Below, one piece after another: positions 11,925-19,021 of a stretch of 64,000 bases of DNA; position 1 is the first letter of the stretch; every line of letters begins with the position of its first letter. The notes below the pieces were generated by a model. That model worked only from the letters and a program-made list of their open reading frames with translations, made no database searches and had not been told where the DNA came from. This DNA comes from Escherichia coli. Its GTDB lineage: Bacteria > Pseudomonadota > Gammaproteobacteria > Enterobacterales > Enterobacteriaceae. The DNA lies in the NCBI RefSeq assembly GCF_048403405.1, contig NZ_CP183129.1; one strand, 5' to 3'. The translations under genes were made by a program, and so were the position numbers.

Positions 11925-13382
11925 ATGAAAACACCCTCACAGCCGCGCGCGATATACTATATCGTGGCGATCCAAATCTGGGAGTACTTCAGTTTTTACG
12001 GCATGCGTGCCTTACTCATTCTCTATCTCACCCATCAGCTTGGTTTTGATGATAACCATGCCATCAGCCTGTTCAGCGCATATGCTTCTCTGGTTTACGT
12101 TACCCCTATTCTCGGCGGCTGGCTTGCCGACCGCCTGCTCGGCAACCGCACTGCAGTGATTGCCGGCGCGCTGTTAATGACCCTTGGCCATGTAGTGCTG
12201 GGCATTGATACAAATTCAACCTTTAGCCTGTATCTGGCGCTGGCAATCATTATTTGTGGCTACGGTTTATTCAAATCAAACATCAGCTGTTTGCTTGGCG
12301 AGCTCTACGACGAGAACGATCATCGACGTGATGGCGGTTTTTCGCTGCTGTATGCTGCAGGCAATATCGGTTCTATCGCCGCCCCCATCGCCTGCGGCCT
12401 GGCTGCTCAGTGGTATGGATGGCATGTTGGCTTTGCCCTTGCGGGTGGCGGCATGTTTATCGGTTTGTTGATTTTCTTAAGCGGTCATCGTCATTTCCAG
12501 TCCACGCGTAGTATGGATAAGAAAGCGCTCACTAGCGTCAAATTTGCCTTACCAGTATGGAGCTGGTTAGTGGTGATGCTCTGTTTAGCCCCAGTATTTT
12601 TTACCCTGCTGCTGGAGAACGACTGGTCCGGATATTTGCTGGCGATCGTTTGCCTCATTGCAGCACAAATCATTGCCCGCATGATGATCAAATTCCCCGA
12701 ACACCGCCGTGCTCTTTGGCAAATTGTATTGTTGATGTTTGTCGGGACGTTGTTCTGGGTACTGGCACAACAGGGCGGCAGTACCATCAGCTTGTTTATC
12801 GATCGCTTTGTGAATCGTCAGGCATTCAATATTGAAGTACCTACAGCACTATTCCAGTCGGTGAATGCCATTGCGGTGATGCTCGCTGGGGTTGTTCTGG
12901 CCTGGCTGGCGTCGCCAGAAAGCCGCGGCAATTCAGCATTGCGCGTCTGGCTGAAGTTTGCCTTTGGCTTACTGCTGATGGCTTGTGGCTTTATGTTGCT
13001 GGCATTTGATGCCCGACATGCAGCGGCTGGCGGTCAAGCGTCAATGGGCGTGATGGTATCCGGGCTGGCGCTAATGGGCTTTGCTGAACTCTTTATTGAC
13101 CCGGTGGCGATTGCGCAAATCACGCGTCTGAAAATGTCTGGCGTATTAACCGGTATTTATATGCTGGCAACAGGCGCGGTCGCCAACTGGCTGGCAGGCG
13201 TCGTGGCACAGCAGACGACAGAGTCGCAAATTAGCGGTATGGCAATTGCCGCTTACCAGCGATTCTTTTCTCAGATGGGAGAGTGGACGTTGGCTTGTGT
13301 CGCGATCATCGTGGTATTGGCCTTTGCTACCCGTTTTCTGTTTAGCACGCCGACGAATATGATACAGGAGAGCAACGATTAA
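11925..13382 (+). CDS. dtpC: proton-dependent di/tripeptide transporter DtpC (YjdL), 485 aa
   Basis: ORF with RBS aaggag; POT/PTR2-family MFS transporter; matches recalled DtpC. Confidence 0.93.
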
Positions 13383-13618
13383 CTGTCGTAAAAACAATTG
13401 GTTATGAATAAATTAACTTTCAGTTTATCACACTAGCAAATCGAGATTAATAAGTCATTTAAACCATTTTTATGGTTATTTATTAGTGATATCAACTTGA
13501 GGTAAGCGTTAGTTTCGATAAGATAAACTGAGTTATTAATAGTCGAGGCAGATAATACAGTGTACCGATCTGTCTCTTTATCTACGCTAAATTGAAAGCT
13601 GGATTTAGAGGAACCAAA

Positions 13619-15136
13619 ATGTCTGAACGAGAAACACGGGGAGCCAATGAGGCTATTGATTTTAACGATGAACTGAGAAATCGCCGCGAAAAACTGGCGG
13701 CACTACGTCAGCAAGGTGTGGCGTTTCCCAATGATTTTCGCCGCGACCATACCTCTGACCAGTTGCACGAAGAGTTTGATGCGAAGGATAACCAGGAACT
13801 GGAATCCTTAAACATTGAAGTCTCGGTTGCTGGCCGAATGATGACCCGTCGTATCATGGGGAAAGCCTCCTTTGTAACGTTGCAGGATGTCGGTGGCCGT
13901 ATTCAACTGTACGTTGCAAGAGATAGCCTGCCAGAAGGTGTTTATAACGATCAGTTTAAAAAATGGGATCTGGGTGACATTATCGGTGCCCGCGGTACGC
14001 TGTTTAAGACGCAAACGGGTGAGCTTTCCATTCACTGTACTGAGCTGCGCCTGCTGACTAAAGCACTACGTCCTTTACCAGATAAATTCCATGGTCTGCA
14101 GGATCAGGAAGTCCGTTATCGTCAACGTTATCTGGACCTCATCGCTAACGATAAATCCCGTCAAACGTTTGTTGTCCGTTCAAAAATTCTGGCCGCTATC
14201 CGTCAGTTCATGGTCGCGCGCGGCTTTATGGAAGTAGAAACCCCGATGATGCAGGTAATTCCAGGTGGGGCATCTGCTCGCCCGTTTATTACCCATCATA
14301 ACGCTCTGGATTTAGATATGTACCTGCGTATCGCGCCAGAGCTGTATCTGAAACGTCTGGTTGTAGGCGGTTTTGAACGGGTATTCGAAATCAACCGTAA
14401 CTTCCGTAATGAAGGTATTTCTGTTCGCCATAATCCTGAGTTCACAATGATGGAACTCTACATGGCGTATGCGGATTACCACGATTTGATTGAACTGACA
14501 GAGTCACTGTTCCGCACCCTGGCACAAGAGGTTCTGGGTACCACTAAAGTCACTTATGGCGAGCATGTGTTTGATTTCGGCAAACCGTTTGAAAAACTCA
14601 CCATGCGCGAAGCAATCAAAAAATATCGTCCAGAAACCGATATGGCCGACCTGGATAATTTTGATGCCGCTAAAGCATTAGCTGAATCTATTGGTATTAC
14701 GGTAGAGAAAAGCTGGGGGCTGGGACGTATTGTCACGGAGATCTTTGATGAAGTGGCAGAAGCACATCTGATTCAGCCAACCTTTATTACGGAATATCCC
14801 GCAGAAGTGTCACCGCTGGCGCGCCGTAATGATGTTAACCCGGAAATCACCGACCGATTTGAATTCTTCATCGGTGGTCGTGAAATCGGTAATGGTTTTA
14901 GCGAATTAAACGACGCAGAAGATCAGGCTGAACGTTTCCAGGAACAGGTTAACGCTAAAGCTGCAGGTGACGACGAAGCCATGTTCTATGACGAAGATTA
15001 CGTGACTGCGCTGGAATATGGTTTGCCACCAACCGCTGGTCTGGGTATTGGTATCGACCGAATGATTATGCTGTTTACAAACAGTCATACTATTCGCGAC
15101 GTTATTCTCTTCCCGGCGATGCGCCCACAGAAATAA
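13619..15136 (+). CDS. lysU: lysyl-tRNA synthetase, heat-inducible isoform LysU, 505 aa
   Basis: ORF track starts at 13592; ATG at 13619 gives the [25 protein letters not shown]-terminus of class II LysRS; position next to dtpC/cadA identifies it as lysU rather than lysS. Confidence 0.93.
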
Positions 15137-15148
15137 TTTTCACTTTAA

Positions 15149-15182
15149 TGAACGAAGCAGTCAGGCGACTGCTTCGTTCATC
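15149..15182. terminator. hairpin between convergent lysU and ghoT (possible bidirectional terminator)
   Basis: 12-bp perfect inverted repeat tgaacgaagcag/ctgcttcgttca; no strong T-tract on either side. Confidence 0.4.
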
Positions 15183-15254
15183 ATTCCGCAAATCCAGTTT
15201 TGAGGAGAGACGCTTCGTTTCACGATAACCAGCGGGTCCACTCAACTACAGCTC

Positions 15255-15428
15255 CTAAAAGAGAGAAAAAAGTAATGCCACAGGCAGACTCATTGGCCAG
15301 GTTATTCCGACCAGGAATGCACTAAGTAAACGAATATGTGTTTTCTCATGTGAGATAAACCAGATAATGACAAAGGATATGTTCACACCAATCACATAAA
15401 AAATTAATATTTTAGAGAATAGTGCCAT
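15255..15428 (-). CDS. ghoT: type V toxin GhoT, small membrane-lytic peptide, 57 aa
   Basis: Not in the supplied ORF track (below size cutoff); minus-strand translation read by hand gives MALFSKILIFYVIGVNISFVIIWFISHEKTHIRLLSAFLVGITWPMSLPVALLFSLF, matching recalled GhoT; immediately downstream of ghoS. Confidence 0.85.
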   Translation of the reverse strand: MALFSKILIFYVIGVNISFVIIWFISHEKTHIRLLSAFLVGITWPMSLPVALLFSLF

Positions 15429-15455
15429 TTTTTATGTTCTTCTTATCCTTCCTGG

Positions 15456-15752
15456 CTACTTGTAAAACTGACGGAAATAGTCATCAACGGTCATAATGTT
15501 GAGGTCAAAATCAATATCCGGTAAGTCTAAGCATTTAAGCCTGATTAAATCTTCGATTTCACTTGCGGCTAACGATGTCGTTATTGCGAAGGAGTTTTCA
15601 TTCAATTGTCGTGGTATCCCATATTCATCAGCCACGATAGAGGAGAAATTCATATCATACATCAATGATCTTAACCTTAAGAACACTGAGGAATAAGATG
15701 ATGGATAATCAAAAGAAACAACATAAGTATTGAACTTGTTTTTACCTTCCAT
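15456..15752 (-). CDS. ghoS: type V antitoxin GhoS (endoribonuclease cleaving ghoT mRNA), 98 aa
   Basis: ORF MEGKNKFNTYVVSFDYPSSYSSVFLRLRSLMYDMNFSS... matches recalled GhoS (YjdK). Confidence 0.9.
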   Translation of the reverse strand: MEGKNKFNTYVVSFDYPSSYSSVFLRLRSLMYDMNFSSIVADEYGIPRQLNENSFAITTSLAASEIEDLIRLKCLDLPDIDFDLNIMTVDDYFRQFYK

Positions 15753-15978
15753 AATATGACTCCTATCAATATTGAACGCTCTGGGGACGCAAAACTTATT
15801 AACCCCGATTGATGATTCTCATATAGGAGATATTCTTTTTTTTGCTCAGTAAAGGGGATGACTTGGGACAAAAAAACGCGCTCTCTGCCCATTCTTTGTG
15901 CATCCCCCTACCCTTCAGATGCTCACCTGCATCACACCGCGGAGAGCATGAAAAATATTGTGACTCTGTACTCTCCCA

Positions 15979-16251
15979 TCAACTGCGAATATCATCATAC
16001 TCCCGCGTTTTATCAAATTCGTGTTTCGCAAATGGGCATAGTGGGATAATTTTTCGTTTTTCCCGACGCATTTTTTCCACGACTTTCGCAACCAGCTGTT
16101 TACCAATCCCCTGCCCTTTCAGGCTTTCATCGACATCGGTATGTTCGATAATCGCTAAATTCTCTCCGGTCGGCACAAAGACAATTTCAGCGATTTGCTT
16201 GCCCTGTTCGTCATTAATGTAAAATTTATTGTGGCCTTCGCGTATTTCCAT
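15979..16251 (-). CDS. yjdJ: GNAT-family N-acetyltransferase YjdJ, 90 aa
   Basis: ORF with acetyl-CoA-binding-like motif ([18 protein letters not shown]); matches recalled YjdJ. Confidence 0.85.
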
Positions 16252-16262
16252 TTTACCCTCGC

Positions 16263-16493
16263 TTATTTATGACGGTATTTCAGCGCGCCGCTCGGGCACG
16301 TATCAATCACTTTAACCACAGTGGCAACGTCGACTTCATCCGGCATGATCCACGGCTTTCGTTTGAGATTAAATAACTTGCCGTTGCCACGTACGCAATT
16401 GCCAGAATGCTGACATATCGCAGTATTGAAATAGACATCGATCTTTTCGCCGGTATAACAGCGATAACCCCCGTCCAGTAGCGCCCGATCCAT
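16263..16493 (-). CDS. yjdI: small cysteine-rich protein YjdI (DUF1271, putative Fe-S/ferredoxin-like), 76 aa
   Basis: [41 protein letters not shown]...CPSGALKY with spaced cysteines; matches recalled YjdI. Confidence 0.85.
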
Positions 16494-16673
16494 GACCTTC
16501 CCTCTCTCATCAGTATGATTATCGCTATAAGCATAGCCCCGGAATCTTCATTCAGCACTGGCAGTTTCCGTTGCCAGAATCTCTTCCCCTATATAGCCAA
16601 TCATTCTTACTCCCTTTGAATTACCCGCCTCATCAGAGATAATGCTTAAGAAATTTGTCACACAAGGAAGCTG

Positions 16674-18305
16674 ATGAGACATTCATTGCCCTACCGCATG
16701 TTACGCAAACGTCCGATGAAATTGAGTACCACAGTGATCTTAATGGTCAGCGCGGTACTGTTCTCGGTGCTATTGGTGGTGCATCTGATTTACTTCTCGC
16801 AAATCAGTGATATGACGCGAGACGGGCTAGCCAACAAGGCACTGGCGGTGGCGCGTACCCTCGCCGACTCGCCGGAAATCCGGCAGGGCTTGCAGAAAAA
16901 ACCGCAGGAGAGCGGCATCCAGGCCATCGCGGAAGCCGTGCGCAAACGCAACGATCTGCTGTTTATTGTCGTTACCGATATGCAAAGTCTTCGCTATTCG
17001 CACCCTGAAGCCCAGCGTATTGGTCAGCCATTTAAAGGTGATGACATCCTTAAGGCGCTGAATGGCGAAGAAAATGTCGCTATCAATCGCGGTTTTCTGG
17101 CGCAGGCTTTACGCGTATTTACCCCCATCTACGATGAAAATCATAAACAAATTGGCGTGGTGGCGATCGGCCTTGAGTTAAGTCGCGTGACCCAACAGAT
17201 CAATGACAGTCGCTGGAGCATTATCTGGTCGGTATTATTTGGCATGCTGGTCGGACTGATTGGCACCTGCATTCTGGTTAACGTACTGAAAAAAATTCTT
17301 TTTGGCCTGGAACCCTACGAAATCTCCACGCTGTTTGAGCAACGCCAGGCCATGTTGCAGTCCATCAAAGAAGGCGTCGTTGCCGTGGACGATCGCGGCG
17401 AGGTCACGCTGATCAACGATGCCGCACAAGAATTGCTGAATTACCGTAAGTCGCAGGACGATGAGAAACTGTCGACGCTCAGCCACGCGTGGTCACAGGT
17501 GGTAGATGTCTCGGAAGTGTTACGCGACGGTACCCCGCGCCGCGACGAAGAGATTACGATTAAAGATCGGCTATTACTGATCAACACCGTTCCGGTGCGC
17601 AGTAATGGCGTTATCATCGGTGCCATTTCAACCTTCAGGGACAAAACTGAAGTACGTAAACTGATGCAGCGACTCGACGGTCTGGTCAACTATGCTGACG
17701 CACTTCGTGAACGATCCCACGAATTTATGAATAAATTGCATGTGATTCTCGGATTATTGCATCTGAAGAGTTATAAGCAGTTGGAAGATTACATTCTCAA
17801 AACAGCCAATAACTATCAGGAAGAGATTGGCTCTCTGCTGGGTAAGATCAAATCTCCGGTTATCGCTGGTTTTTTGATCAGCAAGATTAACCGCGCGACC
17901 GATTTAGGCCATACGCTGATTTTAAACAGTGAAAGCCAGCTGCCAGACAGCGGCAGTGAGGACCAGGTCGCGACGCTGATTACCACATTGGGAAATCTGA
18001 TAGAAAACGCGCTGGAAGCATTAGGGCCGGAACCCGGAGGCGAAATTAGCGTAACATTGCACTACCGTCACGGCTGGCTGCACTGTGAAGTTAACGATGA
18101 TGGACCGGGGATCGCACCCGACAAAATCGATCACATTTTTGACAAAGGTGTCTCGACAAAAGGAAGCGAGCGAGGCGTCGGTTTAGCACTTGTCAAACAA
18201 CAGGTAGAAAATCTCGGCGGCAGCATCGCCGTGGAATCGGAACCCGGGATTTTCACACAATTTTTTGTCCAGATACCCTGGGACGGGGAGAGGTCGAACA
18301 GATGA
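16674..18305 (+). CDS. dcuS: C4-dicarboxylate sensor histidine kinase DcuS, 543 aa
   Basis: Full ORF; TM segments flank a periplasmic sensing domain; H-box and HATPase motifs (DDGPGI) present; matches recalled DcuS. Confidence 0.95.
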   Translation: MRHSLPYRMLRKRPMKLSTTVILMVSAVLFSVLLVVHLIYFSQISDMTRDGLANKALAVARTLADSPEIRQGLQKKPQESGIQAIAEAVRKRNDLLFIVVTDMQSLRYSHPEAQRIGQPFKGDDILKALNGEENVAINRGFLAQALRVFTPIYDENHKQIGVVAIGLELSRVTQQINDSRWSIIWSVLFGMLVGLIGTCILVNVLKKILFGLEPYEISTLFEQRQAMLQSIKEGVVAVDDRGEVTLINDAAQELLNYRKSQDDEKLSTLSHAWSQVVDVSEVLRDGTPRRDEEITIKDRLLLINTVPVRSNGVIIGAISTFRDKTEVRKLMQRLDGLVNYADALRERSHEFMNKLHVILGLLHLKSYKQLEDYILKTANNYQEEIGSLLGKIKSPVIAGFLISKINRATDLGHTLILNSESQLPDSGSEDQVATLITTLGNLIENALEALGPEPGGEISVTLHYRHGWLHCEVNDDGPGIAPDKIDHIFDKGVSTKGSERGVGLALVKQQVENLGGSIAVESEPGIFTQFFVQIPWDGERSNR

Positions 18306-19021
18306 TCAATGTATTAATTATCGATGACGACGCAATGGTCGCGGAGCTGAATCGCCGATACGTAGCACAAATCCCGGGCTTTCAATGCTGTGGAACAGCC
18401 TCGACGCTGGAGAAAGCCAAAGAGATTATCTTCAATAGCGATACGCCTATCGACCTGATATTGCTCGATATCTATATGCAAAAAGAGAACGGGCTCGATT
18501 TACTGCCTGTCCTGCATAACGCACGTTGCAAAAGTGATGTGATTGTCATCTCCTCCGCAGCCGATGCGGCAACCATTAAAGATTCGCTGCATTACGGTGT
18601 CGTGGATTACCTGATCAAACCCTTCCAGGCTTCCCGCTTTGAAGAGGCGCTCACCGGCTGGCGGCAAAAGAAAATGGCGCTGGAAAAACATCAGTATTAT
18701 GACCAGGCCGAGCTTGATCAGCTAATCCACGGCAGCAGCTCCAACGAGCAGGATCCTCGTCGCTTGCCAAAAGGCTTAACGCCGCAGACGTTACGCACGC
18801 TGTGCCAGTGGATTGACGCGCATCAGGACTATGAGTTTTCAACCGACGAGCTGGCTAACGAGGTTAACATTTCGCGTGTTTCCTGCCGTAAATACCTCAT
18901 CTGGCTGGTCAACTGCCACATCTTGTTCACCAGTATCCATTATGGCGTCACGGGGCGTCCGGTTTACCGTTACCGTATTCAGGCAGAACACTACTCACTG
19001 CTGAAACAATATTGCCAATAA
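18302..19021 (+). CDS. dcuR: response regulator DcuR, 239 aa
   Basis: ATGA start/stop overlap with dcuS; CheY-like receiver (IIDDD...LLDIYM) and C-terminal HTH; matches recalled DcuR. Confidence 0.95.
   Translation: MINVLIIDDDAMVAELNRRYVAQIPGFQCCGTASTLEKAKEIIFNSDTPIDLILLDIYMQKENGLDLLPVLHNARCKSDVIVISSAADAATIKDSLHYGVVDYLIKPFQASRFEEALTGWRQKKMALEKHQYYDQAELDQLIHGSSSNEQDPRRLPKGLTPQTLRTLCQWIDAHQDYEFSTDELANEVNISRVSCRKYLIWLVNCHILFTSIHYGVTGRPVYRYRIQAEHYSLLKQYCQ

Follow-up and report, generated by a model that had tools for sequence, protein, structure and literature searches.

The yjdI-yjdJ and ghoS-ghoT genes of Escherichia coli: two described gene pairs most probably brought together by chromosome history

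The type V toxin-antitoxin (TA) system of Escherichia coli K-12 is formed by the GhoS and GhoT proteins (yjdK/yjdO; PDB 2LLZ), of which GhoT is a membrane-damaging peptide and GhoS a stable, Cas2-like endoribonuclease that cuts the ghoT mRNA (PMC4344625, PMC4010927, PMC11783221). The toxicity of GhoT and its neutralisation by GhoS through cleavage of the ghoT mRNA are known from the K-12 proteins, which are near-identical to those described here (PMC4344625, PMC4010927), and the pair has been published as a two-gene system that works from plasmids without yjdIJ (PMC4010927, PMC4344625). The ghoST transcript is bicistronic (PMC11783221) and its ghoS-encoding 5' part is degraded by MqsR, with the result that the ghoT part is enriched (PMC4344625, PMC11783221). 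R28 is a key residue of GhoS, and GhoS is turned into the ArT toxin through positions L25 and M31 (PMC4010927); residues I21 and F38 of GhoT are discussed in PMC4344625. The orphan GhoT-like toxin OrtT (YdcX) shares the PF10753 family with GhoT and is also a small membrane-damaging peptide, but it lacks an antitoxin partner and has GCU sites (PMC4344625).

The genes yjdI and yjdJ, which adjoin ghoST in E. coli, encode a known pair of proteins belonging to the PF06902 and PF14542 families, respectively, the latter with a solved structure (PDB 5I0C). According to bioRxiv 10.1101/2024.04.03.587993, from which the Fer4_19 motif CxHx3Cx32CP used below was taken, YjdI has been characterised spectroscopically as an iron-sulfur (Fe-S) protein. 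A 2018 acetyltransferase screen made use of a yjdJ over-expression plasmid (PMC6199490). In two array studies yjdI and yjdJ were jointly induced after acid shock or at the stationary-phase transition, and yjdK/yjdO are absent from the tables. The locus has been given as 'yjdIJKO between dcuS and lysU' (PMC5538559) and is the insertion site, at yjdJ, of the tagB/tagC (espC-like) SPATE island of ExPEC/ST131, which is bordered by a duplicated yjdJ (PMC6592367, PMC5538559) and is reported in all ST131 (PMC5538559).

The window analysed here is a stretch of 64,000 nucleotides of an E. coli chromosome (assembly GCF_048403405.1, contig NZ_CP183129.1). The strain is without the tagB/tagC island and the four genes are contiguous in it, being arranged in the order ghoT, ghoS, yjdJ and yjdI on the minus strand between lysU and dcuS, with all four open reading frames present in a six-frame ORF list. 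The features of the locus are as follows.

15148-15181, no strand assigned: perfect 15-bp inverted repeat between the convergent lysU and ghoT, forming a 17-bp stem in the RNA fold
15226-15773, minus strand: ghoST module as delimited by homology between independent ghoST loci (blastn against locus L009)
15255-15428, minus strand: ghoT, 57 aa, supported by ORF, Pfam PF10753 and RefSeq name
15429-15455, minus strand: ghoS-ghoT spacer, 27 nt, carrying the ghoT ribosome-binding site AGGAAGGA
15456-15752, minus strand: ghoS, 98-aa endoribonuclease antitoxin, Pfam PF11080
15753-15978, minus strand: yjdJ-ghoS intergenic region, 226 nt, the presumed site of a ghoST promoter
15979-16251, minus strand: yjdJ, 90-aa minimal GNAT (Acetyltransf_CG), Pfam PF14542
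16263-16493, minus strand: yjdI, 76-aa Fer4_19 iron-sulfur protein, Pfam PF06902
16494-16673, no strand assigned: divergent dcuS/yjdI intergenic region, 180 nt, presumed from the coordinates to be the yjdIJ promoter region

The flanking genes lie on the plus strand, lysU up to position 15136 and dcuS from 16674 on, which leaves outer gaps of 118 nt (lysU-ghoT) and 180 nt (yjdI-dcuS), and the gaps between successive genes of the cluster are 11 nt (yjdI-yjdJ), 226 nt (yjdJ-ghoS) and 27 nt (ghoS-ghoT). The lysyl-tRNA synthetase gene is labelled lysS by PGAP and was taken as lysU because it follows cadA-dtpC, as lysU does in K-12, in agreement with the published description of the locus (PMC5538559). 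Over the 1.6-kb stretch the window has 100% identity with E. coli TUM14771, in which RefSeq names ghoT, ghoS, yjdJ and yjdI, and full-length matches to the stretch in a spread sample of other E. coli genomes are about 98-99% identical. The first-pass annotation, made from the sequence alone, had proposed this map and these gene identities and had recovered the 57-aa GhoT by hand translation; the ORF list, Pfam and the RefSeq names bear out the map, and the GhoT open reading frame is real, lying at 15255-15428, with a full-length match to PF10753 (Toxin_GhoT_OrtT; 9.8e-26) and the RefSeq name ghoT. The same annotation had described YjdI as a small, Cys-rich protein, in which the Cys content is overstated, as the protein has four Cys only. 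All four genes, the 57-aa GhoT included, are already known and annotated in E. coli. None of the four proteins was matched by any NCBIfam model above its cutoff or by the PADLOC models of anti-phage defence (no matches for all four), and an Rfam scan of positions 13000-19000 at E <= 1 returned no RNA family.

The locus is very probably best explained as two separate gene pairs, each described before, whose adjacency is owed solely to how the Escherichia chromosome evolved. On this reading ghoS-ghoT is the type V TA bicistron, in which, according to the literature, GhoT, a small two-helix membrane peptide, damages the membrane and depletes ATP, GhoS, a Cas2-like endoribonuclease, cleaves the ghoT mRNA, and MqsR releases the toxin by cutting the transcript in its ghoS part, which contains GCU, and sparing the GCU-free ghoT part. 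The yjdI-yjdJ genes are widespread as a unit of two genes, fused into one in places, and this unit does not depend on ghoST.

The ghoS-ghoT pair of the window is the K-12 system itself, the protein families, gene order, locus, residues and GCU pattern all being in agreement and no difference of substance being observed. GhoT has two hydrophobic segments, roughly at residues 1-26 and 32-57, and carries I21 and F38. GhoS matches PF11080 over its full length (7e-41) and PDB 2LLZ, 'YjdK', over residues 1-98 (7.8e-62), and retains L25, R28 and M31. The order is antitoxin-first with a Shine-Dalgarno sequence in the 27-nt gap, a tight spacing that is consistent with the published bicistronic transcript. 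There are three GCU triplets in ghoS and none in ghoT, as expected under the published MqsR model; the possession of a ghoS partner and the absence of GCU also set the ghoT of the window apart from OrtT. An 11-bp A/U inverted repeat over the ghoT start codon (15394-15404 / 15427-15437) was considered as a translational occlusion hairpin and rejected as probably due to chance, since its 5' arm is unconserved in other Escherichia and in other ghoST loci.

Comparison of the window with an independent ghoST locus (L009) by blastn gave 81% identity only over 15773-15226. The aligned part begins 21 nt before the ghoS ATG, taking in the ghoS ribosome-binding site, and ends 29 nt beyond the ghoT stop codon; neither yjdJ nor the 226-nt spacer shares in the homology. 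The GC content is about 35% for ghoS/ghoT, 43% for yjdJ and 49% for yjdI. Direct repeats, as scars of insertion, were searched for at the cassette edges and none was found. The ghoST pair behaves as a two-gene, low-GC cassette inserted between yjdJ and lysU.

The phylogenetic distributions of the two pairs are very different in the data collected. In a set of 5.8 billion proteins GhoS is represented by no more than 47 clusters; most of the matches are nameless, and those with a source name are all from E. coli or Shigella, except for one human-gut metagenome fragment. Among the GTDB contigs, searched with a single-protein query that reaches close relatives only and with one genome per species, GhoS was found in four Escherichia species. 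One further match, a contig of 306 bp assigned to Bacillus sanguinis (L008) and 100% identical, is probably a contamination. Homologues of GhoS hardly occur outside Escherichia/Shigella. Further ghoST-like loci occur away from the canonical site: two of them (L009 and L010) encode a GhoS that is 77% identical and are flanked by ornithine/lysine-type decarboxylase/permease pairs, and a pair of greater divergence (59% and 76% identity), with an additional speF-potE and a rarD-like gene as neighbours, was found in metagenomes and in 7 of the 5426 complete E. coli genomes. Locus L025 lies beside a second speF-potE in E. coli. No yjdIJ is present at any of the six non-canonical ghoST-like loci (L009, L010, L011-13 and L025).

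Relatives of YjdI were observed in Kosakonia, Yokenella, Enterobacter, Citrobacter, Trabulsiella, Obesumbacterium, Pragia, Listeria (L. fleischmannii) and others. Eleven yjdI-yjdJ loci were fetched from five of these genera, namely Citrobacter (in three downstream contexts), Enterobacter, Obesumbacterium, Pragia and Listeria, and their neighbourhoods are unrelated between genera; tblastn searches with GhoS and GhoT found neither in any of the 11. The Enterobacter locus was considered as a syntenic empty site and rejected, since the adjoining histidine kinase is only 30% identical to DcuS. The question raised in the first-pass annotation of a functional tie between yjdIJ and the TA module, for which co-occurrence across genomes had been proposed as a check, is thus answered unfavourably (0/11 yjdIJ loci with ghoST and 0/6 ghoST-like loci with yjdIJ), and the tie is unsupported because each pair is found without the other and the two are also uncoupled naturally within E. 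coli.

The uncoupling within the species was examined in 5426 complete E. coli genomes, the presence of ghoST or of yjdIJ being defined as coverage of at least 80%. The 1.6-kb stretch is in one piece in 4671 genomes, with ghoST present in 5272 and yjdIJ in 5307, and the main cause of a broken stretch is the tagB/tagC (espC-like) island. An island of about 15 kb parts an intact yjdIJ from ghoST in about 12-14% of E. coli genomes, ST131 included. In the island-bearing strain Esc22 (L026) the order is dcuS, yjdI and yjdJ, an island of about 15 kb, a 99-nt yjdI fragment, a second yjdJ, ghoS, ghoT and lysU, such that a complete copy of yjdJ still adjoins ghoS; the island encodes a fimbrial usher and chaperone, both on the strand opposite, as well as an S6 peptidase, an AraC regulator and an autotransporter. 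In such strains the yjdI promoter would be unable to drive ghoST. Deletions add other rearrangements, one associated with IS1 that takes cadC through ghoS and leaves yjdJ-yjdI intact, and other IS-mediated ones that take the whole four-gene block.

The yjdI and yjdJ genes form a unit of their own. YjdJ covers 80/80 positions of the PF14542 (Acetyltransf_CG) model (1.1e-24) and matches PDB 5I0C, 'YjdJ' (1.4e-56), and YjdI matches PF06902 (Fer4_19) over its full length (5.4e-30); no solved-structure relative of YjdI was found in a PDB search. The four Cys of YjdI include those of C27-x-H29-x3-C33-x32-C66-P67, which fits the Fer4_19 motif. In all 11 of the fetched loci (5 genera) yjdI is followed by a yjdJ homologue after 1-12 nt. 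A full HMMER search with YjdJ returned some representatives with an N-terminal extension of about 80 residues, and two such proteins, P0197 (172 aa) and P0286 (175 aa), are YjdI-YjdJ fusions that contain both Pfam domains and are 53% and 49% identical, respectively, to full-length YjdI; a member of the P0286 cluster is annotated from Proteiniclasticum sp. In a third protein, P0206 (296 aa), CDGSH-type motifs occur together with a Fer4_19 and a GNAT domain. Gene fusion and invariant tight linkage are standard evidence for a functional partnership, on which basis YjdI and YjdJ are expected to act together, and the pair is predicted to be probably one Fe-S-linked acetyltransferase. The proteins of the window are the known E. 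coli proteins themselves; what extends beyond the known pair is the tight linkage across genera and the fusions in some Clostridia and metagenomes, apart from ghoST.

Of the alternatives, the one that survives best is that of read-through without functional coupling, in which the yjdIJ transcript of the stationary phase and of acid conditions would add to the ghoST mRNA in island-free strains. Read-through from yjdIJ into ghoST is possible since the spacer between them is without a consensus terminator: a consensus promoter and terminator scan detected in the yjdJ-ghoS spacer (15753-15978) no terminator, consensus or intrinsic, and no strong or convincing sigma-70 promoter. As a whole the scan is uninformative, with 4.5 promoter-like sites expected and 6 found, and 1.6 terminators expected and none found. 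The joint induction of yjdI and yjdJ in the arrays and the up-regulation of ghoT at acid pH in AIEC strains (PMC7232551) are in line with this alternative, but yjdK/yjdO do not appear alongside yjdIJ in the same array tables, conserved hairpins in the spacer could stop or process transcripts, and in strains of the ST131 type, whose promoter-proximal yjdI lies 15 kb off, the expression of ghoST has to be independent. The array tables are a weak indication of separate regulation of yjdIJ and ghoST, as old arrays may have no probes for small genes. Read-through appears unlikely, and if real would represent regulatory happenstance and not a functional system.

Other signals in the region were also recorded. 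One weak promoter-like site lies on the minus strand at 16016-15988, within the 3' end of yjdJ, and ghoST may have its own promoter in the 226-nt spacer, the fold of which is unremarkable (z = -0.8) and which is conserved in the four Escherichia species (79% mean column identity, alignment A1). The hairpin at 15148-15181 between lysU and ghoT folds with z = -4.6, with 0/200 shuffles folding as well; it was not called a terminator because it is without a U-tract, and it is probably the shared end of both convergent transcripts.

A more elaborate proposal joins two statements, namely that ghoST was captured downstream of a terminator-less yjdIJ and came partly under its stationary-phase/acid promoter, and that YjdI-YjdJ is an iron-sulfur-gated acetyltransferase. 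The horizontally acquired cassette would then receive read-through from an Fe-S/GNAT stress operon, which would tune the supply of antitoxin and toxin transcripts, and the 15-kb island would abolish this coupling in strains of the ST131 type. Taken as a whole, this combination is improbable.

That yjdI-yjdJ-ghoS-ghoT is a four-gene operon, with the Fe-S protein and the GNAT serving as TA accessories that acetylate GhoT/GhoS or act as a redox trigger, is suggested by the compact layout on one strand, the missing consensus terminator between yjdJ and ghoS, the retention of the arrangement in all four of the Escherichia species representatives examined and the copy of yjdJ that stays beside ghoS in island-bearing strains. 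However, the pairs occur together only at one Escherichia locus in the two surveys described above, the edge of the ghoST cassette leaves out yjdJ and the spacer, the GC composition breaks between the pairs, the distance between them is 226 nt as against 11 and 27 nt within them, an intact yjdIJ lies 15 kb off in ST131 and other island-bearing strains, and the published ghoST works as two genes from plasmids without yjdIJ (PMC4010927, PMC4344625), all of which make such an operon very improbable.

Antitoxin and toxin genes of the GNAT type encode DUF1778 antitoxins and toxins of about 170 aa. That yjdI-yjdJ is itself such a pair (AtaT/TacT-like), the locus being two TA systems, finds a parallel in the small upstream gene followed after a short gap by a GNAT, which resembles an antitoxin-then-toxin order, and is at most suggested by the site beside a lysyl-tRNA synthetase gene. 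This reading can hardly be maintained for a 90-aa Acetyltransf_CG minimal GNAT, unlike the GNAT toxins, whose partner is an Fe-S protein covalently fused to it in some proteins, unlike toxin/antitoxin partners. The pair is moreover chromosomal, is conserved in diverse surroundings in Enterobacterales as well as Listeria, and is without PADLOC matches.

The explanation by two independent pairs has consequences mainly for how the locus is read. As the locus is textbook E. coli, with all four genes named in RefSeq, it offers little for discovery, and no functional link should be read into the fact that yjdIJ and ghoST adjoin. The survey has yielded as a by-product evidence of a conserved YjdI-YjdJ partnership, with tight linkage in Enterobacterales as well as Listeria and with fusions in some Clostridia and metagenomes, and an Fe-S-associated minimal acetyltransferase may serve as the starting hypothesis for the function of YjdI and YjdJ.

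Two hairpin-forming sequences were located in the intergenic regions of the yjdI-yjdJ-ghoS-ghoT locus:

15148-15181: inverted repeat with perfectly matched 15-bp arms around a 4-nt loop, in the gap where lysU and ghoT converge
15840-15900, minus strand: imperfect hairpin in the yjdJ-ghoS spacer, columns 85-145 of the spacer alignment A1 (window 15753-15978)

The first has a fold z-score of -4.6 and was not called as a terminator by a simple scan, because the U-tract is absent. The second, of sequence GGGGGATGC...T7...CATCCCC, is nearly invariant in the four Escherichia species aligned, and no match to it was found in Rfam. In Escherichia sp. MOD1-EC7003 the spacer also contains, downstream of this hairpin, an insertion of 53 nt (A1 columns 202-254).

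The locus is also a site of larger rearrangements, including the following island:

L026:32226-47424: 15-kb island of tagB/tagC (espC-like) SPATE and fimbrial genes in E. coli Esc22

The island is bordered by a direct repeat that comprises the final 99 nt of yjdI and the whole of yjdJ, and genome match counts suggest its presence in about 12-14% of the complete E. coli genomes. In three other loci (L003, L029 and L030), the cad-lysU-ghoST block has been deleted to varying extents by IS1 and IS5; one of these deletions ends in the spacer between yjdJ and ghoS and spares both yjdJ and yjdI, while in the others everything is lost as far as dcuS.

A second, divergent ghoST-like pair was identified outside the canonical site, adjoined by an additional speF-potE and by a rarD-like gene, with GhoS identities of about 59-77% and GhoT identities of 76-82%:

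L025:5548-6052: divergent pair, E. coli strain 1-62
L009:6001-6497: divergent pair
L011:972-1457: divergent pair, present as a GhoS-GhoT fusion ORF
L012 and L013: further GhoS-GhoT fusion ORFs

The L025 variant occurs in 7 of the 5426 complete E. coli genomes, and P0320, a cluster member of its GhoS, is found on 370 contigs. The fusions are observed in certain sequences from metagenomes and from E. coli that have lost the ghoS stop codon, resulting in a single in-frame ORF; the predicted fusion proteins include P0042 (135 aa) and the cluster member P0322 (167 aa). A 306-bp contig (L008) identical (100%) to E. coli ghoS-ghoT, in an assembly labelled Bacillus sanguinis, is almost certainly contamination.

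Relatives of yjdI and yjdJ were observed in the following loci:

L021/L022:4001-4549: yjdI-yjdJ pair, Listeria fleischmannii
L027 and L028: loci of YjdI-YjdJ-like fusions

In Listeria, YjdI shares 75% identity with its E. coli counterpart whereas the neighbouring YjdJ shares only 46%, and this difference points to either an exceptionally strong constraint acting on the Fe-S protein or a cross-phylum horizontal transfer. Natural fusions in which one chain joins a Fer4_19 domain resembling YjdI to a GNAT resembling YjdJ were identified in P0197, P0286, P0292 and P0206, with P0336 from Proteiniclasticum sp. grouped with P0286; one YjdI-YjdJ-like fusion of 296 aa additionally contains CDGSH-type motifs. 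The existence of such single-chain proteins argues that YjdI and YjdJ of E. coli act jointly.
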